From the IMG/VR virus record IMGVR_UViG_3300042453_001906: 20,000 bases of DNA; one strand, 5' to 3'. Shown piece after piece: positions 3,759 through 19,919 of the stretch. This DNA comes from an uncultured virus (IMG/VR IMGVR_UViG_3300042453_001906). Lineage: Duplodnaviria > Heunggongvirae > Uroviricota > Caudoviricetes. Both the position numbers and the translations under genes were made by a program. The notes below the pieces were generated by a model, which ran no database searches, was not told the DNA's origin, and saw only the letters and a program-made list of their open reading frames with translations. Position 1 is the first letter of the stretch. The number at the start of each line of letters is the position of its first letter.

Positions 3759-3761
3759 AAA

Positions 3762-3842: not shown

Positions 3843-3850
3843 AAAAAAAG

Positions 3851-4090: not shown

Positions 4091-4103
4091 GGTAAATCCT
4101 TAA

Positions 4104-4176: not shown

Positions 4177-4182
4177 GTTGGT

Positions 4183-4521
4183 TCAGTACGGATAGCCGTA
4201 CTGACCGTAGTTTGGAACAACCACCGGAACTGGAACAGTGGGCAGGACAGGAGGCATTCCTCCGTAGCCGCCGCCGTAAAACGGCATACCCATGCCGCCG
4301 TACATTCCGTAACCACCGTAACCAAAGCCGTAGTCGCGGACATGGACGGACTGCTCGGAAGTACCCGTAAAGTTCGGATTGTAGTTGTATCCGTTGCTCT
4401 TGTTTTCGTAAATCTCCGTGGAACCATTCGCGTGTTTCACCGTTCGGGTGATGTTGGTCTGCGTGTAGCAGCCACACAGGAGGACGGAAGCAGAAGAAAG
4501 AACGAGCGCAGCAGAACGCAT
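4183..4521 (-). CDS. Putative lipoprotein with Gly/Tyr-rich C-terminal region
   Basis: Signal peptide ending in a lipobox-like LLCG-C; GFGYGGYGMYGGMGMPFYGGGYGG; SD GGAG. Confidence 0.8.
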   Translation of the reverse strand: MRSAALVLSSASVLLCGCYTQTNITRTVKHANGSTEIYENKSNGYNYNPNFTGTSEQSVHVRDYGFGYGGYGMYGGMGMPFYGGGYGGMPPVLPTVPVPVVVPNYGQYGYPY

Positions 4522-4540
4522 TAGAGTCTCCGTGGTTGGA

Positions 4541-4942
4541 TTAGCGAATGATGAACTGACCGTTGCACACCGGGTAGACAGGGACAGCGCACCCGCCGTA
4601 ATACGGCATCACGACTGCGGGGTAGTACGGTGCGCCGTAGCATCGCGTAAACGGCGAGTACACAGGCACACAGGGAGCAGCCCCGTATCCATAGCCGCCG
4701 TAGCCGTAGCCACCGCCGTAGCCGTAGCCACTGACGGCATTCATGCCGATGCTGCCACCGATGGAGGTGTTGCTGATGGACGCGGACTTGCCGTTCGGGC
4801 CGGTAACCGTGGTCTTGCTGTACGAGCCACCAAAGTTCACGCCGATACCACTGCCACCATAGCCGTATTGGGCATGGGCAGAAGCCGTGAACAGTGTGGA
4901 AGCGGCAAGAACGGCAGATGAAACGAGTGTCTTCAGTAGCAT
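4541..4942 (-). CDS. Putative secreted Gly/Tyr-rich protein
   Basis: Sec signal peptide with AHA-Q cleavage site; GYGYGGGYGYGGYGYG; SD GAAAGG; own promoter upstream. Confidence 0.8.
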   Translation of the reverse strand: MLLKTLVSSAVLAASTLFTASAHAQYGYGGSGIGVNFGGSYSKTTVTGPNGKSASISNTSIGGSIGMNAVSGYGYGGGYGYGGYGYGAAPCVPVYSPFTRCYGAPYYPAVVMPYYGGCAVPVYPVCNGQFIIR

Positions 4943-4963
4943 GGGTGTAAACCTTTCACCATG

Positions 4964-4991
4964 ATTGTAGCATGGTATAGATGGATGTCAA
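4964..4991 (-). promoter_or_regulatory. Sigma70-type early promoter
   Basis: TTGACA-N16-TACAAT with an extended -10 TG. Confidence 0.8.
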
Positions 4992-4995
4992 TGGG

Positions 4996-5127
4996 TCAAC
5001 GAGCGTTTCGTCTATTTGATTTGGATTTTTGAGATACTTGCCGATTGCCGTTTCTGATTTTGCTTACGGCATTTTTCAACAGGAAAGACTTCAGTTTTTC
5101 CCGAGAGGTTTGATTGTTTTTTGACAT
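4996..5127 (-). CDS. Small basic protein, 43 aa (absent from the ORF track)
   Basis: MSKNNQTSREKLKSFLLKNAVSKIRNGNRQVSQKSKSNRRNAR; SD AAGGAG; CTAAATA late box at 5140-5146; fills the intergenic gap. Confidence 0.7.
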   Translation of the reverse strand: MSKNNQTSREKLKSFLLKNAVSKIRNGNRQVSQKSKSNRRNAR

Positions 5128-5151
5128 TTGCTCCTTAACTATTTAGGAGTT

Positions 5152-6000
5152 TCAGTCAGCAAAATCCTCGTAGATTGTGATCCACTTGGGTTCTTCGCCA
5201 CGGCGGAGGTACGCAGCCTTGGCAAAATTCCACTCTTCTCGTTCTTGCATCTTGTAACCCGAGCGGTGCTTCTTGGCATAACGCTGTGCAGCGTCTTGGT
5301 CGTCAAAATACTCGTAGTTGCCTTCCGAATCCATTGCTCCGAAAAGACCACTGGAAGTCTTCCACACATCACCGGGCTTGTGCTTTTGTGCAGAAGTAGC
5401 AGACTCACCGGACTTTTCCTGTGATTCACTGCCTTGCTGTGGTTCATCCTTCACATTGAACACGAACTTGGTGTCCTTGTGTGCGCCTTTACGCAATTGA
5501 GAGAAGAACTGCACTACCTTGTGCTTTGCAAGTTCAAGGTTGTTTTGTCCTTCACCCTTCTTGAATCGCATAAGAACCTTTCCGATTCCTGCCGATTCAT
5601 TGGTTCCAATGTAGTAAAAGTCTTCGTTGTTTTTGTACATCACTGAGTGCTGCTTGTAATGCCGACCCAACTGCACAATTTCAGACTTTTTGATGTTCGG
5701 TATGAGCAAACTGAGTTCTTCAACCACGCCGCCCTCTTCTTGGTAGCCGCCGCGTAGTTCAATATATCCGTAACCCATCGAACGAACCTTCTTTTTGAGG
5801 TCGTCATGGAGTTTTTTGTTCTGCTCACGCGAATTTTCGCCACGGAAAGCGGAAACAATGCCAAAATCCTTCTCATCGTCTTCCACATACTGAAAAACGC
5901 GAGACAATTTGGCCTCAACGAGGGGCGTTTCGGTGACTTCCGAGCGAGAAATCCACTCGTTTAGTCCCTGACGATCAAGATATTGAGAGAATTTCTTCAT
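5152..6000 (-). CDS. DUF3293-like domain protein, candidate internal head protein
   Basis: Core pattern GIVSAFRG..S...N......L........GY....G.Y.E......E.S..I........LG..Y.Q.SV; N-terminus MKKFSQYL...LNE...LVE resembles the T4 capsid-targeting sequence; late box CTAAATA at 6031-6037. Confidence 0.7.
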   Translation of the reverse strand: MKKFSQYLDRQGLNEWISRSEVTETPLVEAKLSRVFQYVEDDEKDFGIVSAFRGENSREQNKKLHDDLKKKVRSMGYGYIELRGGYQEEGGVVEELSLLIPNIKKSEIVQLGRHYKQHSVMYKNNEDFYYIGTNESAGIGKVLMRFKKGEGQNNLELAKHKVVQFFSQLRKGAHKDTKFVFNVKDEPQQGSESQEKSGESATSAQKHKPGDVWKTSSGLFGAMDSEGNYEYFDDQDAAQRYAKKHRSGYKMQEREEWNFAKAAYLRRGEEPKWITIYEDFAD

Positions 6001-6418
6001 TTACAGTGATCTCCTGTCGTGGGTTCACTATATTTAGGGGAAATAGTGCGTTGCCGTGCAAAACTACCCCCTCATCGGTGGTGTACCAAATCTCCGAAAA
6101 GGCCCCGTAGCACCACGGCATACACCTTTCGCACGGTCGTGCCATCCGCATCTGCCCCAAACTGTTGAAGCGGACATTGAACAGGATCAAATCTCGCTGC
6201 GGGGAGTCCAATTTCAAAAATGCGTCCAATTCGGAGTGCATTTCTTCAAACATGTACCCCTTTTCTTTTGCCATCGGGTGAGTCTTGAACCTATTTTGAC
6301 CCACCGCAACAATTTTTCCCTTACGCAAAATCAAAGAGATGTGCTTTTTCTGTCTCCTGATGCTCAAGCACAGGGGATAAGCGTATTCCAAGAGGCGTTG
6401 AACTCGTTTTGCGTTCAT
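5975..6418 (-). CDS. Zn-dependent cytidine/deoxycytidylate deaminase family protein
   Basis: HSE (HxE) and PCERC (PCxxC) motifs, IVAVGQN, terminal IWYTT. Confidence 0.88.
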   Translation of the reverse strand: MNAKRVQRLLEYAYPLCLSIRRQKKHISLILRKGKIVAVGQNRFKTHPMAKEKGYMFEEMHSELDAFLKLDSPQRDLILFNVRFNSLGQMRMARPCERCMPWCYGAFSEIWYTTDEGVVLHGNALFPLNIVNPRQEITVNEEILSIS

Positions 6419-6426
6419 AACAGTAA

Positions 6427-6469
6427 AAGTAGCGGGGGGAGTCGAACCCCCCTAGTACCCGTGCTACCT
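6427..6469 (-). other. tRNA minihelix-like element (acceptor-like stem plus T-arm), possibly also a terminator
   Basis: AGGTAGC-(10 nt)-GGGGGG TTCGACT CCCCCC-GCTACTT; canonical T-loop, no D or anticodon arm. Confidence 0.6.
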
Positions 6470-6831
6470 CAGAAAACAGCCTTCTCCGTGCAGCAGTCCT
6501 TGGAACCGCTGTCAAGACTGTCGATGTCACGGCGAATGGTGTCATTCACCATGTCAATGTGGCGATACACCGATTCAATCTCACGCGACCGCTCGTTCGA
6601 TTCGTCACGAATAGATTCGAACGCGCTTTCAATCATGGTCTTCTGAGAGGCAAGCATGTAGAAGATGACGGTAGTGCAGAAGAATCCGTAAAACGCAAGG
6701 AAAGATTCCGCAGTGGTCAGGTTATCGCTGCCCTTCACTCCAAACCAAAGACCAGCAAAGCCCACAACGCTCACAAGAGCGTAAGCAGTGAAGATGGAAG
6801 TCTTGCTACGAGTGTTGAAATTGACAAACAT
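6469..6831 (-). CDS. Membrane protein with two TM helices and a C-terminal coiled coil
   Basis: Start moved to ATG 6831 (SD AAAGGAG); two hydrophobic helices followed by a charged helical tail. Confidence 0.8.
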   Translation of the reverse strand: MFVNFNTRSKTSIFTAYALVSVVGFAGLWFGVKGSDNLTTAESFLAFYGFFCTTVIFYMLASQKTMIESAFESIRDESNERSREIESVYRHIDMVNDTIRRDIDSLDSGSKDCCTEKAVF

Positions 6832-6865
6832 GATTTCTCCTTTGTTGGATGTAGATACACTTAAA

Positions 6866-6894
6866 GGGTGAGTGGGCACGATGCCCACCCACCC
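6866..6894 (-). terminator. Strong hairpin (terminator or processing signal)
   Basis: GGGTGGGTGGGCA-TCG-TGCCCACTCACCC followed by TTTAA; the G.U pair favours the minus strand. Confidence 0.55.
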
Positions 6895-6919
6895 CAAGTG
6901 CGGTTCACTGTTTCAGTGA

Positions 6920-7171
6920 TCAGGCGACCGACACGGAAGCGTCAGCCATGCCGCTGCCAAGACGCTTGCTCCAGCGCGAGAGCAGGATCGCAACGCCCTG
7001 CTCGGTGCAGCCGAAGGTGTACGAACGGCTGTCGTAACCATCGTTACGAGCGTTCTTCAGCGTGATGTTCGTGCCGCTGATGCGACGAGCGAAAGCATCA
7101 AACTTGCCCTCGGTGCTGTTGTCGTACAGGTCAACGGTCACGGTCACGGTGTAGTTCTTACGGTTCTTCAT
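6920..7171 (-). CDS. Hypothetical protein, 83 aa (early gene)
   Basis: SD GGAG; own promoter; alternating beta/alpha sequence pattern. Confidence 0.8.
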   Translation of the reverse strand: MKNRKNYTVTVTVDLYDNSTEGKFDAFARRISGTNITLKNARNDGYDSRSYTFGCTEQGVAILLSRWSKRLGSGMADASVSVA

Positions 7172-7252
7172 AGCAAATCTCCAAATGTGGGCTTCAGTGT
7201 GTTTACGCCTCGGATGTCAGCCCGTCACATCGGTTGGCGTTTCGATGAGTAG

Positions 7253-7280
7253 ATTGTAGCAGGTCTACGGTGTATGTCAA
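7253..7280 (-). promoter_or_regulatory. Sigma70-type early promoter
   Basis: TTGACA-N16-TACAAT with an extended -10 TG. Confidence 0.8.
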
Positions 7281-7313
7281 GAGGGTGAGTCGGTTTTCCA
7301 ATATTTGTTTTGC

Positions 7314-7736
7314 TCACCATCTCAAATATCGCATGGCAGCAGCAACGCAAACTGCAACAGCGGTCAACACCGTGCAGAAAGAAATTGCAAATGCCAAGGG
7401 ATGATTAAAAGCAAAATCCTTGAGTTTTTCAAATGATTTTTCGGAGGCTTCATCAAGCCACTTTGAAATATCGTTGAAGACTTGCTTTATTTTAGACGGT
7501 GGAACCACTTGTTCATCCAAATAATCTAGACGACTCGGATAATCAATTTTGGTGAATTCCACTTGAGGAACTGTGGGAACGGGTGGACTCACGATGGGAG
7601 CAGAAAGCGTAAAATCCGCAGACTCGGTGGTGGTAATCACCGGAATCGCTTTTGCGCGAGGCTTGCGTGTGGTTTTTGCCGTCTTGTTTTGCTTTACCCG
7701 TTTAGCCACGGGTTTCTTGATCTTCTTCTTTGCCAT
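7314..7736 (-). CDS. Hypothetical protein with Lys-rich N-terminus and C-terminal TM helix
   Basis: SD AGGAG; late box CTAAATA at 7755-7761; hydrophobic C-terminus. Confidence 0.8.
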   Translation of the reverse strand: MAKKKIKKPVAKRVKQNKTAKTTRKPRAKAIPVITTTESADFTLSAPIVSPPVPTVPQVEFTKIDYPSRLDYLDEQVVPPSKIKQVFNDISKWLDEASEKSFEKLKDFAFNHPLAFAISFCTVLTAVAVCVAAAMRYLRW

Positions 7737-7761
7737 ATGTGTCTCCTAGTTTTATATTTAG

Positions 7762-7834
7762 TGCCTTCGGTGGGAGTCGAACCCACAACCAATTGATTAA
7801 AAGTCAACTGCGCTGCCAATTGCGCTACGAAGGC
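7762..7834 (-). tRNA. tRNA-Lys(UUU)
   Basis: Acceptor GCCTTCG/CGAAGGC-A, anticodon arm GTTGA-CT TTT AA-TCAAT, T-loop TTCGACT. Confidence 0.96.
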
Positions 7835-7844
7835 TTGGATCAAA

Positions 7845-8075
7845 TCAAACCGGATCGAAAAGTGTTGGCTCTGAAGCGGCTGATCGCAGAATCTGTGCGG
7901 CACGAAGTTCAGCGAGTGCATCCTGCATACGGTCAATCAAGTCCATCATTTCAGGAAGACTGTAACTCTCAACAAGTTCGGGAGTATCAACTCCAAAGAC
8001 GGAAACACACAGCGAATTGCCCTTGTGTGGATTGGTTACGATCTGTGTCTTGACATGTGTTCTAATGCTTTCCAT
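7845..8075 (-). CDS. Hypothetical protein
   Basis: 76 aa; SD GAAAGG; overlaps the upstream gene end. Confidence 0.65.
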   Translation of the reverse strand: MESIRTHVKTQIVTNPHKGNSLCVSVFGVDTPELVESYSLPEMMDLIDRMQDALAELRAAQILRSAASEPTLFDPV

Positions 8076-8340
8076 TACGAGCCTTTCTGTTGGTGTGCTT
8101 GCGAAACAACCACGGATGACGCTTCTTCCACATGGCTATCAGGTCTTTGTCGTTCCTGAATGTCTCCATCATGTCGTACAAGAACATTGTAACGCTTTGG
8201 TTGCCGCAGATCAATACCTCATCGTGCAACATATCGAACATCTGTTTTGTTTTTTCTGCACTGACTGGATATTTCACACCCTGATGCTCGTACATCCAAA
8301 GCGGCTTGGTCTTCGTCTTTTTGCGTACAGGCTTTTTCAT
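8062..8340 (-). CDS. Hypothetical protein
   Basis: 92 aa; SD AGGGG; starts 1 nt after the upstream stop. Confidence 0.7.
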   Translation of the reverse strand: MKKPVRKKTKTKPLWMYEHQGVKYPVSAEKTKQMFDMLHDEVLICGNQSVTMFLYDMMETFRNDKDLIAMWKKRHPWLFRKHTNRKARNGKH

Positions 8341-8341
8341 T

Positions 8342-8596
8342 TTATCCCCTGAACAGGTACTTGAGTCTCTGCCAAAAATTCATTCCTGTTGGAAATTCTA
8401 AAACACCTTTTCTCATGCTCTCTCCCCATCCACACGAATCTGTTTCACGCATGTGTTTCAACATGTGTGCCGGGGGAAATCGGTCGCTCACTTCACGCCA
8501 AGCATGGCATTCCTTGCCAAGAACGAAAAGTTGATCCAACAATTTCTGTTGGTATGCTATATGCTGTTCTCGGCAGTCTTTATCGCATGGGCACAT
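8342..8596 (-). CDS. Hypothetical protein
   Basis: Start moved to ATG 8596, a TAATG overlap with the guaC stop; [12 protein letters not shown]...NFWQRLKYLFRG. Confidence 0.7.
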   Translation of the reverse strand: MCPCDKDCREQHIAYQQKLLDQLFVLGKECHAWREVSDRFPPAHMLKHMRETDSCGWGESMRKGVLEFPTGMNFWQRLKYLFRG

Positions 8597-9657
8597 TATC
8601 CGTTCCCCCAAACCGTGTTCAGTTGACGGTTAACACGAACAAATGTGGTACACTTGGGCAAGTCCTTCAGTCGCCGCGCTCCCACATAAGTGCAAGCCGA
8701 CCGCAGACCACCAGTAATTTCACGAACCGTTTCTGCTATAGGGCCGGTGAGCGGAACTCCCACAATCTTGCCCTCAGAAGCACGGTGCTTTGCGATTCCA
8801 CCGGAGTACTTGTTCATGGCAGCGCACGAACTCATTCCGTAAAATTGCTTTCGATCACCAATCACCTCTCCCTCTGCTTCATCCGCCCCCGCAAACATCC
8901 CGCCAAGCATCACGAAATCTGCTCCTGCACCGAATGCCTTTGCAACATCGCCGGGGCATGTGCAGCCACCGTCACCGATCACATATCCACCCAACCCATG
9001 TGCTGCATCGGCACACTCCGCGATAGCAGACAATTGAGGATATCCAACTCCCGCAACCCGGCGGGTGGTGCAAACCGATCCGGGCCCAATCCCCACCTTC
9101 ACGATGTTGGCTCCCGCAAGTAGCAGGGCTTCTGTCATTTCTCGGGTAACCACATTTCCTGCAATAAGCACATGATTGGGAAACAGTCCACGAATGGTCT
9201 TGACATATTCCGCAAATCGCTCTGTGTAGCCGTTTGCCACATCAAGGCAAATGAAGTTCACTCCGGGACACGCGCTCAATACTCGCTGTGCCTTTTCCAC
9301 TTCTTGGTACTGCGAGTTTCCGTCACTTCCCATTCCCATCGTGTACACAAGGTGATTCACAGAGATGCCATTGATAAAAAACCTGTTGTAGTTTTCCGCC
9401 CACTGCTCCACGGAATAGTGCTTGTGAATTGCCACCATGCCACCCAATGGGATAAGTTGTTCGGCAATGCGAAATGTACCAACGGTGTCCATGTTCGCAG
9501 ACATGATGGGCACACACGAAAAAGATGCGTTGCCGTCACGCAACCTGAACTTGAACTCACGCTCAAGGGAAACCTCACTGCGCGACTTCATGCTGCTCCG
9601 CTTTGGGCGGATCAGTACATCGGAAAAATCCAACTTGGTGTCTTCTTCGATTCGCAT
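8596..9657 (-). CDS. guaC: GMP reductase
   Basis: [109 protein letters not shown]. Confidence 0.97.
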
Positions 9658-9674
9658 GACAGTCCTTTCACAAA

Positions 9675-9746
9675 TGCGGGTTGGGAGAATCGAACTCCCG
9701 TGACGGGTTTGGAAAACCCGCGTAATAGCCTCTATACGAAACCCGC
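9675..9746 (-). tRNA. tRNA-Gly(UCC)
   Basis: Acceptor GCGGGTT/AACCCGC-A, anticodon arm CGGGT-TT TCC AA-ACCCG, T-loop TTCGATT. Confidence 0.95.
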
Positions 9747-9752
9747 GTGTAC

Positions 9753-9968
9753 TTATCGCGCTCGGGCGTTGATCCGTTGCGCTCTTCTGATATTTTCCGT
9801 GTCACTGCTGTCAACCATGACCAGTTCCGGTGCGGTCTTGTGCGACCAATCCATGAATCCGACGAATGTGGTCACGCGAGAACACTTCACGCAAGTAGTG
9901 GTGTTGGGAAGTGCTTCAAGTCGTGCGGGAGGAATAACGCAGTTGCATGATTCGCAAGTACGAGGCAT
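9753..9968 (-). CDS. DksA/TraR-type C4 zinc-finger protein
   Basis: [22 protein letters not shown] matches the DksA/TraR C4 signature; start moved to ATG 9968 (SD GGAG, TGATG overlap). Confidence 0.88.
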
Positions 9969-10168
9969 CACCGTGTCTCCATGATAAACATACTGCTCTT
10001 GATTGCACGGCACTGCTGCCGGAACTCACCGTCAAGCCGTGCCTTGCGTTCCTTGTGTGTGCGCTTGTTGAATCCAAAAGGCTTGCACACCTGTTGCCGA
10101 CCACGGCTCAGGGCAGTGCCTTGCCGCTCGGCTTCCATGTCGATAGAGTCTAGAACTCGCTTTGCCAT
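9968..10168 (-). CDS. Small basic hypothetical protein, probably leaderless
   Basis: MAKRVLDSIDMEAERQG...; ATG 10168 lies 6 nt downstream of a -10 box, with no SD. Confidence 0.7.
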   Translation of the reverse strand: MAKRVLDSIDMEAERQGTALSRGRQQVCKPFGFNKRTHKERKARLDGEFRQQCRAIKSSMFIMETR

Positions 10169-10174
10169 ACCCAT

Positions 10175-10202
10175 AGTATAGCGTGTGGGCGGCAGCAGTC
10201 AA
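10175..10202 (-). promoter_or_regulatory. Sigma70-type early promoter
   Basis: TTGACT-N16-TATACT. Confidence 0.75.
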
Positions 10203-10215
10203 CAGAGAAGTAGAT

Positions 10216-10467
10216 TTAAAATAGTCCGTAAACCGAAACACCAGAGGCGCAAGACGCACCGCTTGTTTTAATCGGAAAAATAACTGAAGAACTTGCGCCT
10301 GCAACCATACGCATCGAAAAAGTTGCTCCAGTTGCTCCCCACGGAAACAGATCGACATTGGAAGGAGAACCATTTATATTCACAAACATTACCCCCTTAA
10401 CCTTGGTGGTTCCGGTGGCAGCAAACGCTCCATTAGTAATGAGTGATATTTTGTGATAGATGTCCAT
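10216..10467 (-). CDS. Small beta-rich putative virion (decoration) protein
   Basis: 83 aa, Gly/Ala/Thr/Ser-rich; SD AGGAG; late box CTAAATA at 10487-10493; C-terminus SGVSVYGLF matches the upstream gene. Confidence 0.7.
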   Translation of the reverse strand: MDIYHKISLITNGAFAATGTTKVKGVMFVNINGSPSNVDLFPWGATGATFSMRMVAGASSSVIFPIKTSGASCASGVSVYGLF

Positions 10468-10489
10468 TTATCAATTCTCCTATTTGTAT

Positions 10490-11419
10490 TTAGTATAATC
10501 CGTATACTTGCAATCCGCTGGGAGATGCAATATTTTGATCGTTTTTGGTGGCAATTGTAAAAAAGGATTGATTCACTAGAGTTGTGCTGTTTGCAGGAAC
10601 AGTCACTGTGGTGTCGTATATCCTATTCACCCCCGCCCCCGATCCACGGGCAACGGTGGCTGTGCCTATTCCCGTACCAATTCCGTTCCATTGCTGTGCG
10701 GTGGGGGTATATGTGCCAAGCGTGTTTCCCTCTATTAGTTGCGCTCCCCAAAAAACCAAACGAGCAACCGGAGGAGTTCCACTACCGTTTCCTATCGCTA
10801 TATTCTCAAAGGTGTTTGTGGTGGAATTACTTGCCACAAATGTATGAAACACTCTTCTTGGAGTAGTGGTAACTGTAAAATCTGGCGAAAAGCCAGATGT
10901 TGCTCCCACGGTGTATGTGGATATTCTTGCTGTGGTAGTGGAAGGATATCCCTCTCTGTTATCACATGCCATCCAAACTGAAAAAGTGTAAATCTTTCCT
11001 TTTTCTAAAAATGACGAGGACGGAAATCCAAAATAAATCCCGTTATTTGCACTTAAAACTGTTTGAATCATTACACCGTTTGTTGTTCCATCTGGCATGA
11101 CTATGTTGGAGTACACGCTGCCGTTTACCACTGGATGGGTGGCAGAATAGGTAATCCACCGCAAAGCCCCGGTAGTTATGCCGGATCGAATGTTTTCGCT
11201 GAAAAGTATTTCGTTGGTTATGCCACTTACCTGTTCACCTAGACTGTAGGCATTAAATGAAATTCCAACACCGGAAGTGTTTGTGACAAGCAAGGCATTG
11301 GATTGATTCTGACGGTTCACCGTATCATACGAATACCAAGGAAAGTGACCCGTGTCCACTGTGTTGTTGATATAAAAGCGTTCAGCCTTCTCGTATTGAT
11401 CTTTATTTCCGTAAGCCAT
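10490..11419 (-). CDS. Putative virion protein with a carbohydrate-binding-like (head spike/fibre-type) domain
   Basis: NEILFSE...W...PDGT...YTFSVW...FWGAQLIEG...TYTPT pattern of CBM-like phage fibre domains; late box CTAAATA at 11439-11445; SD GGAGG. Confidence 0.75.
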   Translation of the reverse strand: MAYGNKDQYEKAERFYINNTVDTGHFPWYSYDTVNRQNQSNALLVTNTSGVGISFNAYSLGEQVSGITNEILFSENIRSGITTGALRWITYSATHPVVNGSVYSNIVMPDGTTNGVMIQTVLSANNGIYFGFPSSSFLEKGKIYTFSVWMACDNREGYPSTTTARISTYTVGATSGFSPDFTVTTTPRRVFHTFVASNSTTNTFENIAIGNGSGTPPVARLVFWGAQLIEGNTLGTYTPTAQQWNGIGTGIGTATVARGSGAGVNRIYDTTVTVPANSTTLVNQSFFTIATKNDQNIASPSGLQVYGLY

Positions 11420-11454
11420 GCACTTTCCTCCAGTCTCCTATTTAGACCAAAAGG

Positions 11455-11477
11455 AAAAAGGAGCCTTGCGGCTCCTC
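11455..11477 (-). terminator. Intrinsic terminator of the tmRNA gene
   Basis: GAGGAGCC-GCAA-GGCTCCTTTTT; immediately followed by a late promoter box. Confidence 0.88.
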
Positions 11478-11800
11478 TTTCTGCCCGTTCAGATGCGGGA
11501 GGGCTTTCCCCACGGCTTCAAGCCGCCATTGCCAGTCTGTTGGCAATTATGGTTGCAACAGGTTTTTTAACGAGGCTCTGTAACCCGCCCCGGATGCCTC
11601 TTGCTTCTCTAATCCGCGCTAGTCGATTCCATTTCGACCCCGTGTCCCGGAGGCTAGCACTCCGGGGGTTGCCCCGCTGCACCGGGGACTTGACTCGCCG
11701 TCCCCGAAAACTTGCAGTAGCAATCAGGTTAGGCTAATGGAGTCGGGGGGATTCGAACCCCCGTGCTATTCGCGTTTCGATCCACCGTCAACAGCATCAC
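11478..11800 (-). ncRNA. ssrA: Circularly permuted (two-piece) tmRNA gene
   Basis: Acceptor piece ~11800-11738 ends GGGGG TTCGAAT CCCCC CGACTCC-A; intervening segment 11737-11642; coding piece starts at 11641 with GGGGTCGAAATGGAATCGAC; G3.U70 and A73; pk1 at 11592-11560; resume context ATAATT-GCC; tag ANRLAMAA* at 11544-11518. Confidence 0.92.
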
Positions 11801-12014
11801 TGTATCTATTCAATTCAGTGCCCCAACCACTCTCACGGATGCTTTCTTCCCACCGTTCCCGAATGTCTGCGGGGAACGGGTAGTGCTTGCACACTTGCCG
11901 GGCCCTTAGACGAATGCTACGGGGCACTCGGGGAGTCTTTTTAGGATCAAGCAGGTCGTACAAAAAGTTTCGGGTTGCAATCAGCGCGTGTAGTTCTTCA
12001 TGCGGAAGGGTCAT
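11766..12014 (-). CDS. BPSL0761-like family protein
   Basis: MTLP.E...AL...R.FL.DLLDPKKTPRVP..IR.RAR...KHYP pattern; its 3' end overlaps the tmRNA acceptor piece. Confidence 0.78.
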   Translation of the reverse strand: MTLPHEELHALIATRNFLYDLLDPKKTPRVPRSIRLRARQVCKHYPFPADIRERWEESIRESGWGTELNRYSDAVDGGSKRE

Positions 12015-12339
12015 TCGCTTGTTCCTTTAGTGCCTTTTCCAATTCAGCGTACATGGAAATCCAAGTCTTCTTGGGAATGAACACCGGATGCCCTGCTTCC
12101 TCGTCCCACACCCACCATCCGTTTGCTTTTTCGTGCAAATACGAAAACATGGCAGCATCCAATTCACCCACCTTGGGATCGCCGTCTTTCCACTTCTGCA
12201 CCATGTTCCAAATGGTGATCTCAAGTCCGCTCATCCACCCCGCAGCGTAAGCGTCTTCGCTCCAGTCACGCATTACCCGCAGGAGGGTGTGTCTTGCTAT
12301 TTCGCTTTCGCTTGGGCTTTTGCTTTTTGGCTTTGCCAT
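11998..12339 (-). CDS. Conserved phage hypothetical protein
   Basis: M...SE.AY.AGWMSGLE..IW...GWWVWD....PVFIP...W; the start may be 12339 or 12273. Confidence 0.7.
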   Translation of the reverse strand: MAKPKSKSPSESEIARHTLLRVMRDWSEDAYAAGWMSGLEITIWNMVQKWKDGDPKVGELDAAMFSYLHEKANGWWVWDEEAGHPVFIPKKTWISMYAELEKALKEQANDPSA

Positions 12340-12430
12340 TGCCGAAAATTTCCTCCCAATTCTTGTCCCACAGTTTCCAATCCACCGGACGATACTGATC
12401 GCCCTTGCCAGCAGCGTGTTTACCACCCAT
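12266..12430 (-). CDS. Small phage protein of the GKG...RP...NW..IF type
   Basis: MGGKHAAGKGDQYRPVDWKLWDKNWEEIFG; start moved to ATG 12430. Confidence 0.7.
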   Translation of the reverse strand: MGGKHAAGKGDQYRPVDWKLWDKNWEEIFGNGKAKKQKPKRKRNSKTHPPAGNA

Positions 12431-12440
12431 GTCACTGCGG

Positions 12441-12656
12441 TCAAGCGTTGGGTCGGGCAGAGAACCCGAACGGCTGCGTGGAAGTGGGGACAGCGACCGG
12501 ACGATCCATCGCGGCAATCGCGTCCACAACGATCTTGTTGATCTGCTCGTTGAAGGTCATGTTGTTGGCATGAGCCATCTTTGCAATCTTGAGGAATGTG
12601 CTGTCGCCCACTGCCATCTCAAGCACGATGCTTGTAGTCTTCTTTGGTGTAGCCAT
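12441..12656 (-). CDS. Small putative DNA-binding protein (ribbon-helix-helix-like)
   Basis: Beta strand followed by FLKIAKMAH..NMTFNEQINKIV; SD GGAG; start moved to 12656. Confidence 0.65.
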   Translation of the reverse strand: MATPKKTTSIVLEMAVGDSTFLKIAKMAHANNMTFNEQINKIVVDAIAAMDRPVAVPTSTQPFGFSARPNA

Positions 12657-12657
12657 T

Positions 12658-12936
12658 TTAATCTGTCTCCATTTGTTCACTGATTCCACTGATGTTGTAC
12701 GCAACAAGTTCACGCGCACACTCACTCACCCACAGTTCGCGGGGATTCACGCCCCATGTCCGAACAGAACGGATGATGAGGTTATTTAGGTCTTCATCCG
12801 TGTCGATGATTTCGTCTACCATTCCTGCCCGTGCCGTGTCGCGTGAGGTAACACACAGTCCCCACAAGCCGTCACAAATGTAGTCGATCACTGCGTGTTG
12901 GTCGTCACCGAAGTTGTTGTAGTCAGAGTCGTGCAT
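12658..12936 (-). CDS. Acidic hypothetical protein
   Basis: 92 aa; SD GAAAGG; follows tRNA-Ile. Confidence 0.7.
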   Translation of the reverse strand: MHDSDYNNFGDDQHAVIDYICDGLWGLCVTSRDTARAGMVDEIIDTDEDLNNLIIRSVRTWGVNPRELWVSECARELVAYNISGISEQMETD

Positions 12937-12950
12937 GGTAACCTTTCGAA

Positions 12951-13021
12951 TAGGCGGTTCAGGTGTCGATCCTGAATGAATCGGGTATAAGCCGATCTGC
13001 GAAGCCGTCCGCCCACCGCCC
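12951..13021 (-). tRNA. Atypical tRNA-Ile(UAU)
   Basis: Acceptor GGGCGGT/ACCGCCT-A, D-arm GCG-GACGGCTT-CGC, anticodon arm ATCGG-CT TAT AC-CCGAT, T-arm TCAGG-ATCGACA-CCTGA (A54; G8). Confidence 0.85.
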
Positions 13022-13139
13022 AGTGGTCTGCTCTAGTATAGACTCATTTAGACATCCATGCTAGGGCAGAAGTCGCGTTTTTCATTATTTGATGCAGAAA
13101 GTCAGGGACCGCGACTTAAACCTTTTTTCTGCGGAATTC

Positions 13140-14945: not shown

Positions 14946-15050
14946 TCTACTGGTGTTTAGTGGTGTGTAGAGAACGAATAATATTGTTCTTCAAACCCTA
15001 CACAGTACTTATACGGGTGAAAAAATGACCCCAATATAAAAGTGTATATT

Positions 15051-15230
15051 TCAGCGAGATTTCATTTTCGATTCCCATGACACGATCTGCTTTCTCAGGG
15101 CAGTCATGGTTTGTGCCAGTTCGCGCCACCCGGTTTGATCCAAGAGATACGCTTCGTAATCCTCCACCGCTCGTTTGGCTGCGATGATCAGTTCTTCGGT
15201 TGGAGTCTTTTCGGGTTCGTATTTGGACAT
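15051..15230 (-). CDS. Small helical protein, 59 aa (absent from the ORF track)
   Basis: MSKYEPEKTPTEELIIAAKRAVEDYEAYLLDQTGWRELAQTMTALRKQIVSWESKMKSR; SD AGGAG. Confidence 0.75.
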   Translation of the reverse strand: MSKYEPEKTPTEELIIAAKRAVEDYEAYLLDQTGWRELAQTMTALRKQIVSWESKMKSR

Positions 15231-15234
15231 GGTT

Positions 15235-15552
15235 CTATCTCCTGAATTTTCTGATGAACCTTTTCCACCATGAGGGTTTTATGGAGTTTTCTGTTTTCGC
15301 GCACCCATTTATTCGTTTCCACTCCCGTTGTTCAATTATTTCGTACCGCAGCATTTCTCGTATCTGAAAGGGCAAGATCATCGGTATGGTTTCATCGTAC
15401 CGAGATTTTGCAACATCAAGAAGTCCTTCAATTGCTCTACCGTTTTCAACAATGTCCCAAGTCTCACCGCCATCAGATGATTCACAGAGTGCGTACATTC
15501 CGCCGTGTTCATCGGTGTTAAGCAAATCAATTCCGATGATTTTTTCATCCAT
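15235..15552 (-). CDS. Hypothetical protein
   Basis: 105 aa; SD GGAGG; late box ATAAATA at 15569-15575. Confidence 0.75.
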   Translation of the reverse strand: MDEKIIGIDLLNTDEHGGMYALCESSDGGETWDIVENGRAIEGLLDVAKSRYDETIPMILPFQIREMLRYEIIEQREWKRINGCAKTENSIKPSWWKRFIRKFRR

Positions 15553-15577
15553 AGCAAACCTCCAAGTCTATTTATGG

Positions 15578-15604
15578 AAAAAGCCGCCCCGTGAGGAGCG
15601 GCTT
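15578..15604 (-). terminator. Intrinsic terminator ending the early operon
   Basis: AAGCCGCTCC-TCAC-GGGGCGGCTTTTT. Confidence 0.88.
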
Positions 15605-15623
15605 CTATGGGTGCGCGAGTTTT

Positions 15624-15893
15624 TTACTCGCCGTCTGTGGTGCGGAACAGGGTGTTGTTCGCGTCCGCTTCTGCCTTGTCGGGGAAGCAGTCCCAACCCA
15701 TGCGAACGGCGTATTGCTGCGGACTGCACGGCGGATACACAATGCACTCCGCTTCCATCTCGCAGATTTTCCGCCGTGCCTCGTCGCGCTCCTTCCGCAA
15801 CTGCTCAATTTCAGCATTTGCCTCGTCATTGAGAATGTCTGCCATCTTCTCCATGAGGCGGACAGATTCGGGAATGGGTTTGTTGTCAGGCAT
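15624..15893 (-). CDS. ERDEARR/GWDC family protein A
   Basis: DEANAEIEQLRKERDEARRKIC...GWDCF; SD GAAAGGA; start moved to 15893. Confidence 0.78.
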   Translation of the reverse strand: MPDNKPIPESVRLMEKMADILNDEANAEIEQLRKERDEARRKICEMEAECIVYPPCSPQQYAVRMGWDCFPDKAEADANNTLFRTTDGE

Positions 15894-16032
15894 AGATTTC
15901 CTTTCGGAGTGAGGACTTGGACTTGCGGCGTTCGGCGCGGGGACATCGGGACTTCTTGCCCCATGTCTTGGCGCGGAGGCGTTGCCCCTCGCGGAGCGCA
16001 TCGTGGACGAACTTTCCTGCTCTGATGTTCAT
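15886..16032 (-). CDS. Small basic protein, 48 aa (absent from the ORF track)
   Basis: MNIRAGKFVHDALREGQRLRAKTWGKKSRCPRAERRKSKSSLRKEIYA; SD AAGGAG; coupled at both ends. Confidence 0.7.
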   Translation of the reverse strand: MNIRAGKFVHDALREGQRLRAKTWGKKSRCPRAERRKSKSSLRKEIYA

Positions 16033-16253
16033 GCGTTCTCCTTGTAGCAGTCCCATCCGCGCCGCTCGGCTTCTGCACGGGCGCGGCGATTCATGTCATC
16101 CACGGATAGGCAGTTACCGACAGGCGCGGCTTCGCACCACATCCGCCTCGCCGCATCACGCTCTTCACGGTAGAAGTCTCGTTCGCCCTGAAGCCAGTTG
16201 ATCCTCATTTTGAGAGCGATGATTTCTTTCTCGCATTCAGTCATTTCAGTCAT
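16029..16253 (-). CDS. ERDEARR/GWDC family protein B
   Basis: EERDAARRMWC...GWDCYKENA; SD AAGGAG. Confidence 0.78.
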   Translation of the reverse strand: MTEMTECEKEIIALKMRINWLQGERDFYREERDAARRMWCEAAPVGNCLSVDDMNRRARAEAERRGWDCYKENA

Positions 16254-16557
16254 TGCTGTTCTCCTTGAAACAGTCCCATCCACGCTCAACCGCTATCTCC
16301 TTTGCCAGACCCACGACATCCTCGCTGTCTCTGTGGACACGATGCCGTTGCAAACGGATGATTGCCTCATTCCTGCACAACTCACGCCTCGCCGCACACA
16401 ACTCACGCCGTGCCTCGTCACGCTCCTTCCGCAGCCGCTCAATCTCCGCGTTGGCTTCGTCAATCTGCCTTTCAAGTTCTGCATTGTCCTTGATCAATCG
16501 GTTGTACTTTTCCTTGTAAATATCAGCCAGTTCTACAAGCGATTGTTTGTCAAGCAT
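16246..16557 (-). CDS. ERDEARR/GWDC family protein C
   Basis: DEANAEIERLRKERDEARRELCAARRELC...GWDCFKENSND; SD AAGGAG. Confidence 0.8.
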   Translation of the reverse strand: MLDKQSLVELADIYKEKYNRLIKDNAELERQIDEANAEIERLRKERDEARRELCAARRELCRNEAIIRLQRHRVHRDSEDVVGLAKEIAVERGWDCFKENSND

Positions 16558-16795
16558 TGTTGTTCTCCTTGAACAAGTTGTGGATGGCTTCCAGATGCCC
16601 ATTGCTCTCCGCGCCATGTTCGATTCGGCAGTCGATCTCATTGAGGATGCGTCCCGTTTGCAGCCTCGCCTCGTCGCGCTCGGCGCGGAGCCTTTCGATG
16701 TAGGCTGCGGCTTCCGCAATGTCGTTATCATCGCGGTTGGTGTGATCGCGCAGACGGGAAACAATGTCATACTTACCTTCGCATGGGTCAGTCAT
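16550..16795 (-). CDS. ERDEARR family protein D (lacks GWDC)
   Basis: DIVSRLR...EAAAYIERLRAERDEAR...FKENNNA; SD AAGGAG. Confidence 0.78.
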   Translation of the reverse strand: MTDPCEGKYDIVSRLRDHTNRDDNDIAEAAAYIERLRAERDEARLQTGRILNEIDCRIEHGAESNGHLEAIHNLFKENNNA

Positions 16796-16991
16796 CGATG
16801 TTCTCCTTGTAGTTCTTGTAGCACTCCCACCCAAACCGCAGCCGTTCCATCTCTTCGGTGACAGCCGACAACTGTGATCGCAGACACTCAATCAAGTGCG
16901 TTCCTTCCGCGTTAGTGCTGCTCAACCCACGGGTGGCTTCAAGAATCTGTCTGCTCTTCTGTTCGTAGTTGCCACGGCGGAACTCAAACAT
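16788..16991 (-). CDS. ERDEARR/GWDC family protein E (middle segment missing)
   Basis: EEMERLR-F-GWECYKNYKENIDD; SD AAGGAG. Confidence 0.72.
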   Translation of the reverse strand: MFEFRRGNYEQKSRQILEATRGLSSTNAEGTHLIECLRSQLSAVTEEMERLRFGWECYKNYKENIDD

Positions 16992-17370
16992 CGGTGTTCT
17001 CCTTGAAGCAGTCCCATCCAAGAAAATCGGCAACGCTGCGTTTAGTCTCGTTGGTAATCCCATGTTGGATTTTTTCAACAGCCCCACAGTAAAGCCGCCT
17101 TGCTTCGTCACGCTCTTTCTCAAGTTCACGGCACTCCTCGGTCAGAAGGTTGTTCTGATACCGAGCGTTCTCCAGTTCCTCGGTCAGATTCCTGCCACGG
17201 AGTCGGTCTAGGTTGTCTCCTGCGAGTAGATCGGGGTCTTCTTCAGTCATCGGCGTGTCTCCTGTGTTGGTTGTGGTGATTACTTCGACCTGTGGTGGGT
17301 GGTTGGGAGCCGTATACGGCGGGATGTATTGCCACAGTTCCTCAATACGCTTGTCGGTGGGGTCAGTCAT
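16984..17370 (-). CDS. ERDEARR/GWDC family protein F
   Basis: LEKERDEARRLYC...GWDCFKENTDV; SD AAGGAG; possible internal start at MTEED. Confidence 0.8.
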   Translation of the reverse strand: MTDPTDKRIEELWQYIPPYTAPNHPPQVEVITTTNTGDTPMTEEDPDLLAGDNLDRLRGRNLTEELENARYQNNLLTEECRELEKERDEARRLYCGAVEKIQHGITNETKRSVADFLGWDCFKENTDV

Positions 17371-17551
17371 TGGTGTTCTCCTTGTTCTTCTTGAGTCCCG
17401 TCTTCAGGATGAAATACAACTGGCGTTCGCACATCCGCTGAAAGTCAGCGGTGTAATCCTCGGGGTCATCGTATGGGTTGCTCTCCCGCCACATAGCGAT
17501 GAGGGCGTTGGTGAGTGCGTCTGCAACCATTTCTTTTGCGGTCTTGTTCAT
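17363..17551 (-). CDS. Hypothetical protein, 62 aa
   Basis: MNKTAKEMVADAL...KENTND; SD GAGGA; start moved to 17551. Confidence 0.7.
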   Translation of the reverse strand: MNKTAKEMVADALTNALIAMWRESNPYDDPEDYTADFQRMCERQLYFILKTGLKKNKENTND

Positions 17552-17561
17552 TTGTTTTTCC

Positions 17562-17957
17562 TCAAGGAAGATCGTCAACAGCGGGAGTCCGTCCCGTCTG
17601 CTCGTACAGTCGCCACGCCTCACACCCACCGCAGCCCTTCTTGAACCGCTTGCACTTCGGACCCCACATCCGCTCCATGCCCTGCGGCGTGTGGTCGCTC
17701 GGCTCACACAGTTCGCAAGTGTCGTAGTCGGTGTCGTAAACGGGTTCGCCGCAGCAGCGGCACGGGTTCGCGTTGTCGTCCGAAACAGGCGCGTCCTTGC
17801 CCGACACGATGCCGTAGCAACGGCGGCACAGGGTCGCGCTCTCGCCCACATTGGCGGAAGCCACATCGCACGGCAGTTCTTCCACCACGCAACGCGCCTT
17901 CGCGTGGACGCGGCAACCGCAACTGTCACAGTGTTCGTATTTGCACATTTCTGTCAT
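17562..17957 (-). CDS. Cys-rich putative multi-zinc-finger protein
   Basis: CDSC, CRRC, CRCC, CELC and CGGC knuckles; SD AGAGGAG. Confidence 0.75.
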   Translation of the reverse strand: MTEMCKYEHCDSCGCRVHAKARCVVEELPCDVASANVGESATLCRRCYGIVSGKDAPVSDDNANPCRCCGEPVYDTDYDTCELCEPSDHTPQGMERMWGPKCKRFKKGCGGCEAWRLYEQTGRTPAVDDLP

Positions 17958-17967
17958 TCTCCTCTGT

Positions 17968-18186
17968 TTACTTGACCCGTTTCCAACCCCACTCCATCAG
18001 ACTGTCCCATGTCCGCCGCGCTGCGTCCTTGGAGTAGATGCCGCTTGGCGGGATGTCAGGCAAGTCCTGCGTGTCGTTGCTCTGAATAATGATCTTGTCG
18101 TCTGCGGTATTTATCATGGAGACAAACACGGACGGAATGTCCTTGTTCACCAACACCCACTCCAATGGCGTGAACACTTCAGGCAT
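17968..18186 (-). CDS. Hypothetical protein, paralogue of the C-terminal domain of the upstream gene
   Basis: MPEVFTPLEWVLV...GIYSKDAARRTWDSLMEWGW; SD GGAG; start moved to 18186. Confidence 0.75.
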   Translation of the reverse strand: MPEVFTPLEWVLVNKDIPSVFVSMINTADDKIIIQSNDTQDLPDIPPSGIYSKDAARRTWDSLMEWGWKRVK

Positions 18187-18976
18187 TGTTGGCTCCGTGC
18201 GTCTGCGACAGCACCCACCCGTCAGCGACCAGCGCGTTCCAAGTCTGACGCGCCTCGTCCTTTGTGTAGATGCCGTCCACATAGTTCTCGTCATCGGAGG
18301 TCAGCACGATGCGACCGTCTGTGGTGGTGTTCATCGTGAGGAACATCGCGTTCTTCACGAAAGTCCAACCCTGCGGCTTGCGCGGCGCAGCGGGAGCCGT
18401 GGGCGCAGCAGCACCACCGAGGTCTTCGGTGCTGAAGTAAATCCCCGTGGCAGTGTGCGTGGGGTCGCTCTTCAGAACGCCGTGGAACGAGTACACCCAC
18501 TGCCTACGCAGCATCTCGTCAAACCGCTGCTGCGTGATGCTGGTGGCATCAAAGTACCACCGCTTGCTGTCGCCGCAGAACTTCGCGTTCAGCATCTTCG
18601 CAACATCCTTGTGTTCAAACGGAACCGCAAGGTAGATGCGGAAGGGGTACGCGAGGTTGATGTCCGCGAGGTTCAGCGCGTATGCGTTGAACGCGGGAGC
18701 CTTGCGCTCACCCACGATCATTTCGTGATCGTTGAGCCACTTCACCGTTTCCGCCGTGAGGCGGTTCTGCGGCATCCACCACTTGATCTTGCCCTTCGCA
18801 GCGGGAACGAAACGCGCACCGCGACCCTTGGCTTCGGAGCGGATGGCAGTGCTGCCCTTGGTGCGGAAGGGAATGTCGATCCACAGACCGTAGGGAAGCG
18901 CGGACGGGTTGAGAGTGTACGGGGTGTACGACATAGGCGAACGGGTAGAGCGGCGAGTGGGTGAGGCGGTAGCCAT
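18179..18976 (-). CDS. Protein with two DUF5710-like domains and a C-terminal ARxxW..L...GW domain
   Basis: LWIDIPF...EAKGRGARF....KWWMP and IYLAVPFEHKDVAKMLNAKF...SKRWYF match the DUF5710 pattern. Confidence 0.82.
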   Translation of the reverse strand: MATASPTRRSTRSPMSYTPYTLNPSALPYGLWIDIPFRTKGSTAIRSEAKGRGARFVPAAKGKIKWWMPQNRLTAETVKWLNDHEMIVGERKAPAFNAYALNLADINLAYPFRIYLAVPFEHKDVAKMLNAKFCGDSKRWYFDATSITQQRFDEMLRRQWVYSFHGVLKSDPTHTATGIYFSTEDLGGAAAPTAPAAPRKPQGWTFVKNAMFLTMNTTTDGRIVLTSDDENYVDGIYTKDEARQTWNALVADGWVLSQTHGANNA

Positions 18977-19457: not shown

Positions 19458-19919
19458 TCATATTTCGTTGTCTTGCTCCACCCACCGGAAAGAATTTCCG
19501 TGAGAAATAAGAGCCGCGATTGGTTCAACAACCGAATCAATACTGTAGAAAGCGATTTGAGCATTTTTGTATCCTCCGTTTTCCAAACTCATGCTCATGC
19601 TCTTTCTTCCAACGGGATTCATGGAATGGCACACCACAAACCCAATATCGGGAGTGTGTTCACGAATCCAATTCACGATGGCAGTTCCGTCACGCCAACC
19701 CATCTTGGTGTCCCAATCACCGGGGTCTTCAAGATCGTGGTCTAGAAACACGATGTTCCACTTGCCGCTCTTCAGAGCCGAAATGGTTTCATCATAGTCC
19801 CGTGCCCACACAAACTCTACATGATCGGTTTCCTCGTTCCTGAACATTTCACAGAAGTACTCCCATCTGTGGTTGGAATCGTCAACGAACAAGACTTTTC
19901 TTTTTTCGGGTTTCATCAT
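19458..19919 (-). CDS. Cyclic-phosphate-processing receiver-domain protein
   Basis: LFVDD, WARDYDE, FLDHDL, DG..IVNWI and HSMNPVGR..M; the DHDL and HS.NP motifs distinguish this clade from signalling receivers. Confidence 0.85.
   Translation of the reverse strand: MMKPEKRKVLFVDDSNHRWEYFCEMFRNEETDHVEFVWARDYDETISALKSGKWNIVFLDHDLEDPGDWDTKMGWRDGTAIVNWIREHTPDIGFVVCHSMNPVGRKSMSMSLENGGYKNAQIAFYSIDSVVEPIAALISHGNSFRWVEQDNEI

Follow-up and report, generated by a model that had tools for sequence, protein, structure and literature searches.

Results

Organization of the array

The uncultured virus record IMGVR_UViG_3300042453_001906 of IMG/VR (Caudoviricetes) was analysed over a stretch of 20,000 nucleotides (nt), hereafter the window. 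Positions 17551-15624 on the minus strand of this freshwater phage DNA carry eight translationally coupled small genes in the order G, F, E, D, C, B, X and A, in which the start codons of F, E, D, C, B, X and A overlap the preceding stop (Table 1). A first-pass annotation, made from the letters alone, had described the interval as six paralogous genes in which two constant blocks surround variable segments. Those six genes and their plan are indeed present: F, C, B and A are full members, with both ERD(E/A)ARRxxC and GWDC(F/Y), and D (without GWDC) and E (without the middle) are module variants of the same family. The interval also contains G and X, which lie outside the plan. A full member consists of a variable N module, the block (I/L)ExLRxERDEARRxxC (block 1), a variable middle of ~20-40 amino acids (aa) and the block RGWDC(F/Y) (block 2). 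A search of viral contigs yielded 88 relatives, 80 of which were retained as 78 loci (numbered with the prefix L). A profile made from related loci matches F, C, B and A at E values of 3e-16 to 4e-11 and D at 7e-5, a resemblance beyond chance; gene E is not matched by this profile (block 1 missing).

The two variants and the two additional genes also have relatives elsewhere. In gene E, ...EEMERLR is joined directly to FGWECY (16850-16818). Its N module precedes a full block 1 and middle in other loci (N cluster 19, L012 and L043), and the short form itself is retained at 80-97% in L055, L017, L036, L056 and L006. Gene X is probably a decayed or derived member that has lost its C-terminal block, because its homologue in L060 (4165-4323) terminates in ...REVRGWDCFKDNA (C-terminal RGWDCFKDNA). 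Gene G has a homologue in L079 (88%).

Constant blocks and the KEN tail

Genes A and C have 18 of 20 residues in common over DEANAEIE(Q/R)LRKERDEARR(K/E), and 11 of the 60 nt differ, giving eight synonymous and two non-synonymous codons, as expected from the protein-level selection that had been proposed for this pair. At the block 1 residues E, R, D, E, A, R, R and C, conservation is 86-100% and the codon tables show a mixture of synonymous codons, a pattern that points to selection on the protein. Some block positions are strongly codon-biased (AGG in 93 of 121), a bias that would fit shared descent or conversion. Of 531 unique domain instances, 517 retain both cysteines; the second one (C2) is never missing among instances extending to the profile end, and the tryptophan and the arginine of E-R-D are near-invariant across the family. 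The internal ARRELC duplication reported for C is real but imperfect, its units (16413-16393 and 16392-16372) being identical at 16 of 21 nt. It is also found in L003 and L004, not in L005, L006 or L009, and corresponds to one added heptad of the predicted coiled coil.

The KEN that follows GWDC(F/Y) had been counted as part of the protein block, and here our analysis leads to a different conclusion: KEN is the codon reading of AAGGAGAA, the Shine-Dalgarno sequence of the next gene. AAGGAG lies 5-7 nt before the starts of F, E, D, C, B and X (7 nt in the case of F, whose start overlaps the stop of G), and the upstream gene reads it as K-E. The tail is present in the non-member G (KENTND) and also in D and E, without GWDC(F/Y) directly ahead, whereas the last gene, A, has no AAGGAG and no KEN: it reads GWDCF-PDK..., with the tail PDKAEADANNTLFRTTDGE after block 2, and no gene follows it. 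An identical tail occurs in L004. All six starts following a KEN tail in the window show this translational coupling via a Shine-Dalgarno sequence embedded in the upstream gene. Tails were analysed in 121 complete members with enough flank, the window included, 100 of which have tails of at most eight residues. GGAG, GAGG or AGGA occurs within 9 nt after WDC(F/Y) in 88 of these 100 short-tailed members; the downstream start overlaps or abuts the stop in 81 of the 88, and the spacing from Shine-Dalgarno to start is 7-8 nt in 66 of 77. Six of the 12 short-tailed members lacking such a sequence have no overlapping or adjacent start, and variant tails (EE, QE, PQED, DKE) still keep the GGAG core. 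The protein motif is RGWDC(F/Y) only, and the residues after it therefore belong to the translation signal of the next gene.

Mosaicism and exchange points

The array had been proposed to belong to a diversifying family with the constant blocks at the points of exchange, and pair counts, clusters, flanks, a patch map and metagenome contigs all bear this out. For the pair counts, L001 and L002 were dropped, identical proteins were collapsed (159 to 149) and the 122 proteins with both motifs were kept. N was defined as the 30 residues before block 1 and the middle as the segment between the blocks; 7260 of the 7381 possible pairs had segments long enough to compare. An N identity of at least 60% was combined with a middle identity of at most 25% in 51 pairs, and the converse (N at most 25%, middle at least 60%) was observed in 64, with three pairs reaching at least 60% in both segments. 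Only 14 pairs had one segment at 60% or above and the other intermediate, and most exchanges are therefore clean at the block. Single-linkage clustering of the 122 members gave 83 N clusters and 76 middle clusters. Every multi-member N cluster (22 of 22) occurs with at least two different middles, and 24 of the 26 multi-member middle clusters with at least two N modules; one N module is found on five unrelated middles, its 30 residues being identical in four of the five members and carrying one substitution in the fifth. The graph connecting N modules and middles contains four independent cycles, which divergence alone cannot produce. The neighbourhoods change as well: 70 of 76 same-middle pairs have different sequences in the 120 nt downstream, and 41 of 46 same-N pairs in the 120 nt upstream.

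The exchanges can be followed in the genes of the window. The N part of D (16806-16664) and L017:3915-4057 agree at all of their 143 nt (100%), and the gene of L017 then has another middle; the remainder of D (16693-16555) is 91-93% identical to L012, L034, L023 and L008; these two sets of matches overlap in block 1 only (16699-16661). The same holds for A, in which 15866-15772 are 96% identical to L003 and 15815-15684 are 93% identical to L053, again with an overlap in block 1 only. The middle module of B is common to L077 (91% at the nucleotide level) and L066 (83%), where it stands behind other N modules. Gene F is composed of at least four patches, matching L003/L043 (17371-17243), L006 (17244-17176), L036 (17183-17096) and L079 (17115-16997).

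Only the blocks give exact identity of 15-36 nt between otherwise unrelated copies. For 1500 pairs in which neither N nor middle is related, the longest exact nucleotide match had a median of 11 in block 1 (at least 15 nt in 23%, at least 20 nt in 9%, maximum 36) and of 11 in block 2 (28%, 11% and 30, respectively), as compared with a median of 5 in N or middle (0% at both lengths, maximum 10 in N and 13 in the middle).

Two syntenic loci, L079 and L060, keep the DUF5710 gene, the Cys-rich gene and the downstream 105-aa and 59-aa genes, with up to 92% identity. Between these common flanks their arrays differ in the number and kind of members, so that the same genes are not retained in a fixed order, and the genes interspersed among the members (G, X and, in L060 and L079, those of 72-79 aa) vary from locus to locus.

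Contigs from four metagenome runs (three DNA runs and one RNA-library run) were aligned to positions 15000-18500. Many short contigs stop at common points and then continue with several different sequences. The stop at 16663 is common to three or four contigs per DNA run (agreement 0.65-0.68), and further common stops were found at 16446, 16699, 16989, 17024 and 16393; in our own reading of the best 22 of 168, 16 of the 20 loose ends within the array lie at, or at most 6 nt from, the edge of a block or junction. A contig of 1663 nt from the RNA library passes from the end of G (17352) through 140 other letters to the C block (16446), F, E and D being absent, and a second contig of the same run contains G, F and part of E. 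Parts of the array are not covered in some of the runs. Contig joints with short sides (19-36 letters) were not used to call specific deletions, as these sides possibly come from other family members.

Mosaicism of the array is thus strongly supported by the comparison of sequences. The upstream gene, the N module, the middle and the downstream gene are seen to reassort independently among phages, and the exchange points visible in the alignments are block 1 and the GWDC/Shine-Dalgarno/start junction.

Predicted structure

The idea that the constant blocks form a dimerization scaffold finds support at the level of structure prediction only. The AlphaFold2 model of C (predicted local distance difference test, pLDDT, 90.3) comprises a helix at residues 4-71, a loop and a helix at 78-92, followed by GWDCF, and the core of B (pLDDT 85.2) has the same helical plan. 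As a homodimer, C reached an interface score (interaction prediction score from aligned errors, ipSAE) of 0.61 (three runs: 0.65, 0.61 and 0.59), versus 0.00 for the best of three controls, with a contact agreement of at least 95% and a partner pLDDT of at least 76. The contacts are spaced by 3-4 residues (a/d heptad) over residues 4-70 (4, 7-8, 10-11 ... 66-67, 70), and the closest pairs link residue i with residue i in both copies. The dimer core includes I39, L42, R46, A49 and L53 of IERLRKERDEARREL, the conserved cysteine of block 1 lying just outside the listed interface. The predicted dimer of C is therefore a parallel, in-register coiled coil whose core contains the constant block. Foldseek returned no match in the PDB at E values of at most 0.001, and a VIA wide fold search returned generic coiled coils only (Z at most 6.4).

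Distribution of the family

Profile matches number one to seven per locus across 79 sources, with E values down to 1e-19. A core profile (A2; 103 sequences, 65 positions) retrieved 2395 representatives (at 50% identity) at E values of at most 1e-3, and 892 at 1e-10 or below. Both motifs are present in 144 of the 149 representatives examined, and 21 have more than one GWDC (tandem fused domains). A middle module with the pattern H(x)TGFL(A/S)GDY...RGWDCF recurs in 37 of 380 proteins, typically as the first of tandem double or triple domains (e.g. L005:4527-5157, L023:2978-3575, L032 and L065).

The first-pass annotation knew of no described function for this family, and searches of Pfam, PHROGs, NCBIfam, PADLOC and PDB gave no match to a characterized domain or family. 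Pfam gave coiled-coil-type matches only, all below cut-off, PADLOC weak coiled-coil matches only, and NCBIfam nothing above cut-off. The best PHROGs match was phrog_3501 (unknown function; E 5e-5, for C), with two single-member matches among 103, and the best profile match in PDB sequences was the Prp19 coiled coil (E 0.002). A word-indexed protein search returned 197 matches, with a Pfam domain in none of the 120 listed. In a protein atlas we found unnamed clusters only, with uninformative cluster names; the label ribbon-helix-helix, carried by the first structural match there, was set aside as a lead only, since no family covers the aligned part. The window DNA had no blastn match, and B and C no tblastn match, in 50,697 deposited phage genomes. 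When protein C was compared with one genome per bacterial or archaeal species, the matches listed fell in seven loci, two of which truly carry the family (short contigs of freshwater metagenome-assembled genomes); the other five are coiled-coil matches to residues 16-55 of C. Literature searches with the motif strings and general terms retrieved no description of the family. Judged by its profile matches, it is a large, unnamed group of small phage proteins.

Among 92 large plus-strand genes near the loci, we counted 11 C5-cytosine methylases, eight T7-type helicase-primases, five ERF recombinases, four family-A polymerases above cut-off and two single-subunit RNA polymerases, as well as family-B polymerases in two loci. 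In T7-like, ERF-type and gp32-type contigs, the genes around the array are those of early or replication regions. A C5-cytosine DNA methylase gene lies at most 4 kb from the family in 11 loci (L007, L015, L019, L021, L036, L039, L041, L046, L058, L064 and L072).

Genomic context

The window is part of a large virulent-type phage, because it combines the gp32, GMP-reductase-like and SAM (S-adenosylmethionine)-lyase-like genes with eight tRNAs and a permuted transfer-messenger RNA (tmRNA). Its T4-type gp32 single-strand-binding protein is ~55% identical to T4-like cyanophage versions. The stretch is contained in 20 sequencing runs from 14 studies, of lake, river, freshwater and wastewater samples. 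In the related loci L013 and L071, the GMP-reductase-like gene is paired with adenylosuccinate synthetase.

The DUF5710 gene begins one early-type operon, and the array interval forms its distal part. The hairpin after gene A (-24.4 kcal/mol, z -4.47) is a probable intrinsic terminator; none of 200 shuffles folds as well, and the pattern scan did not pick it up. The Cys-rich protein encoded upstream of G contains many CxxC pairs and has no family match; it is ~88% conserved in the syntenic L079 and L060, where it was called as about 87-90 aa.

Table 1. Genes, blocks and signals of the array and other features of the window.
Feature	Position	Strand	Description
gene G	17551-17363	-	62 aa; no profile match, not a family member; tail KNKENTND
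gene F	17370-16984	-	128 aa; full member; profile E 3.1e-16
gene F block 1	17133-17086	-	CRELEKERDEARRLYC
gene F block 2	17022-17005	-	LGWDCF
gene E	16991-16788	-	67 aa; short variant; no block 1, no middle
gene D	16795-16550	-	81 aa; ERDEARL; alternative C-terminal module without GWDC; profile E 7.2e-5
gene D block 1	16699-16661	-	IERLRAERDEARL
gene C	16557-16246	-	103 aa; full member
gene C block 1	16443-16396	-
gene C block 2	16284-16267	-
gene C duplication	16413-16372	-	imperfect, 21 nt (one heptad)
gene B	16253-16029	-	74 aa; full member
gene B block 1	16181-16134	-	ERDAARRMWC
gene B block 2	16061-16044	-	RGWDCY
gene X	16032-15886	-	48 aa; basic; without family motif
gene A	15893-15624	-	89 aa; full member; last gene of the operon
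gene A block 1	15809-15762	-
gene A block 2	15701-15684	-
intrinsic terminator candidate	15606-15574	-	hairpin then U run, after gene A
Cys-rich protein gene	17957-17562	-	131-aa frame; upstream, ends 8 nt before G start, no overlap
DUF5710-domain protein gene	18182-18976	-	265 aa; E 2e-11; first gene of the operon
internal frame	17968-18294		overlaps the DUF5710 gene
sigma-70-like promoter candidate	19014-18985	-	TTGACG-18-TATAAT; 11/12 matches; upstream of the operon
cREC_REC receiver-domain protein gene	19461-19919	-
tRNA genes (eight)	3456-13022	-	among small genes; Thr, Tyr, Gln, Asn, Glu, Lys, Gly, Ile-tat; seven given by Rfam
permuted (two-piece) tmRNA gene	11518-11798	-	Rfam RF04321, 68.9 bits (gathering score 47); placed by ARAGORN at 11427-11829, tag ANRLAMAA*
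GMP reductase/IMPDH-family protein gene	8599-9657	-
SAM-lyase-like protein gene	5155-6000	-

Discussion

A possible role for the family is suggested by its longer forms. We found 249 proteins of at least 154 aa (E at most 1e-5), most of which are tandem domains. In P0371, the family core stands behind an RNA polymerase alpha C-terminal domain (alpha-CTD; 59.8 bits, cut-off 23.8), and in P0285 and P0302 behind a segment that aligns with the C-terminal half of the TacA1 antitoxin profile (26 bits versus 21). TacA binds its toxin through its C-terminal part. Four other proteins (P0294, P0303, P0345 and P0357) have a common unnamed N-terminal domain of ~150 aa ahead of the core, which in P0303 includes a Cys-containing stretch with a weak, sub-threshold match to Lar restriction alleviation. 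Such fusions, which are rare, hint at host takeover or counter-defence by means of swappable binding heads, and would fit a dimerizing handle for interchangeable heads directed against host machinery or toxin-antitoxin defences. Recombination at the blocks would generate new combinations of N module and middle and alter the content of the array, and the encoded proteins might be dimeric scaffolds presenting interchangeable binding modules to host targets, in takeover or counter-defence; we put forward this last step with low confidence. The explanation as a whole, i.e. a coupled array that is shuffled at its blocks and encodes predicted dimeric scaffolds with exchangeable modules, seems to us fairly probable. 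One can go further and imagine a natural combinatorial library of binders, with a constant coiled-coil handle and two independently exchangeable specificity modules. Paralogues might pair, the blocks would be kept for both folding and crossover, and unrelated phages sharing hosts would trade heads, in a recombination-based analogue of antigenic-variation cassettes. We offer this extended version only tentatively.

Several observations weigh against the proposed explanation. Two patch boundaries of F (17243/17244 and ~17180) lie outside the blocks, and exchange is thus not confined to them. Since every member has conserved blocks, a breakpoint can be located no more finely than to a block as a whole, and N identity was obtained from the 30 block-adjacent residues only, with starts called by a simple rule. 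Contig breaks at repeats are expected from assemblers, which may also join different phages. The contigs from the RNA library are not claimed as proof of expression, since carried-over DNA is possible, and the promoter-like sites of the region (three, versus a chance expectation of 2.2) say little for early expression. Coiled coils are an easy case for complex predictors, and the calibration of ipSAE, in which 20 of 30 proteins solved as pairs reach this mark as compared with one of 23 solved as single chains, holds only roughly for the dimer run, which used our own alignment. As for function, no annotated homologue bears on it, and the alpha-CTD and TacA-like fusions are rare (three of 380 proteins).

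The conservation of the blocks could also be read the other way round, the constant part being the working part, with one conserved site for metal, redox or host-target binding, and the variable segments serving to escape host sensors. The retention of both cysteines in 517 of the 531 domain instances and the near-invariant W and R speak for such a site, as do the two cysteines per chain, hence four per dimer, and the position of the constant block in the predicted dimer core. However, a single shared task would hardly explain five to eight copies per genome, the variable modules are 90-100% conserved across phages, unlike escape variation, and no metal-binding or enzyme family was matched; we consider this explanation unlikely. 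Less likely again, in our opinion, are dimeric transcription regulators or nucleic-acid binders, leucine-zipper-like with arginine-rich surfaces, which would reprogramme host or phage expression. The predicted parallel dimeric coiled coil, the conserved R46, R50 and R51 of C together with the R before GWDC, and the one member fused to an alpha-CTD domain are all compatible with them, but the zipper is not preceded by a basic region, the N modules being mostly acidic or neutral and mutually unrelated, and neither a DNA-binding family nor any fold other than generic coiled coils (Z at most 6.4) was matched.

Alternatively, the cassettes might be neutral or selfish recombinogenic filler that spreads via its conserved ends without benefit to the phage. 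The occurrence of the family across unrelated phage types, the rapid turnover of the arrays and the junction sequence common to non-member genes could be understood in this way. Against it, synonymous change has left the constant residues intact, hundreds of clusters retain open frames and both cysteines, and the one-heptad duplication preserves the register of the coiled coil, which makes filler slightly more improbable to us than the regulators. Repeats do break short-read assemblies, and the array might in principle be a chance resemblance or an assembly chimera. This is for practical purposes refuted by profile E values down to 1e-19, by thousands of independent clusters, and by four runs, each of a different study, that contain 0.97-1.00 of the sampled words of the stretch, three of these runs being possibly the source.

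The closest known process is the shuffling mediated by promoter early stem-loops (PeSLs) in the hyperplastic regions of T4-type phages, by which small non-core early genes are exchanged (Arbiol et al., 2010, PMC2839356; Comeau et al., 2014, PMC4122927). In both cases, small non-core early genes of large phages are gained, lost or replaced via recombination between short repeated conserved motifs, and shuffling of small accessory genes between repeated motifs is what we find here, via coding motifs. PeSLs are described as intergenic cassettes of a promoter and a stem-loop, whereas the genes studied here overlap and leave no intergenic space. The motifs are instead a coding block kept at the amino-acid level and a stop/Shine-Dalgarno/start junction, and exchange also takes place inside genes, yielding chimeric proteins. 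PeSL cassettes are absent from the array: the sole promoter-like site listed in it (16334-16362) is on the opposite strand, within C, and the pattern scan found no terminator-like site.

In terms of protein logic, the gp38 adhesins of T-even phages are nearest. Their glycine-rich motifs separate hypervariable segments (Trojet et al., 2011, PMC3157838), so that, as in our family, conserved structural motifs alternate with interchangeable variable segments in one small protein. In contrast, gp38 is a single-copy virion adhesin, and the proteins of the array are multi-copy, helical and apparently non-virion; the two are not related in sequence or fold. Orphan cdiA-CT/cdiI modules behind contact-dependent growth inhibition (CDI) and Rhs loci have a VENN-coding boundary as proposed recombination site (Poole et al., 2011, PMC3150448). 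There too, tandem modules share a short coding motif at which abrupt divergence begins and variable parts are proposed to be loaded. These modules, however, are bacterial secreted toxins with immunity genes, most of the orphans being described as without start signals, whereas the array consists of small phage genes, each complete and translated, with two variable modules and no immunity partner. No toxin and immunity arrangement was found in it, the members adjoining directly and matching no toxin or immunity family. Finally, the internal proteins of T-even phages are diverse defence-countering proteins with a common capsid targeting sequence (reviewed in PMC3012670). They resemble our family as an arms-race repertoire of diverse small proteins united by one short constant sequence; their capsid targeting sequence is N-terminal and serves for packaging, whereas here the N termini are variable and the constant blocks internal and C-terminal, and the family is not known to be linked to the capsid. 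The 83 N clusters among 122 members leave no constant N terminus of the capsid-targeting type. None of these four systems is homologous to the family, and its two-block coding scaffold, intragenic chimeric proteins, multi-copy coupled array and spread over unrelated phage types are new.

The KEN tail calls for caution in the annotation of tightly packed phage operons, where conserved C-terminal 'motifs' can be translation signals of the next gene. More generally, most small early genes of phages are orphans and not comparable across phages. Here, one scaffold links thousands of small genes from gp32-type, T7-like, ERF-type and PolB-type phages, and the family displays, at nucleotide resolution, the assembly of new small proteins from parts. 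Should the variable modules be binding heads, the family would provide an alignable catalogue of candidate host-takeover or counter-defence specificities, carried on a simple dimeric scaffold whose modules could be tested one by one.

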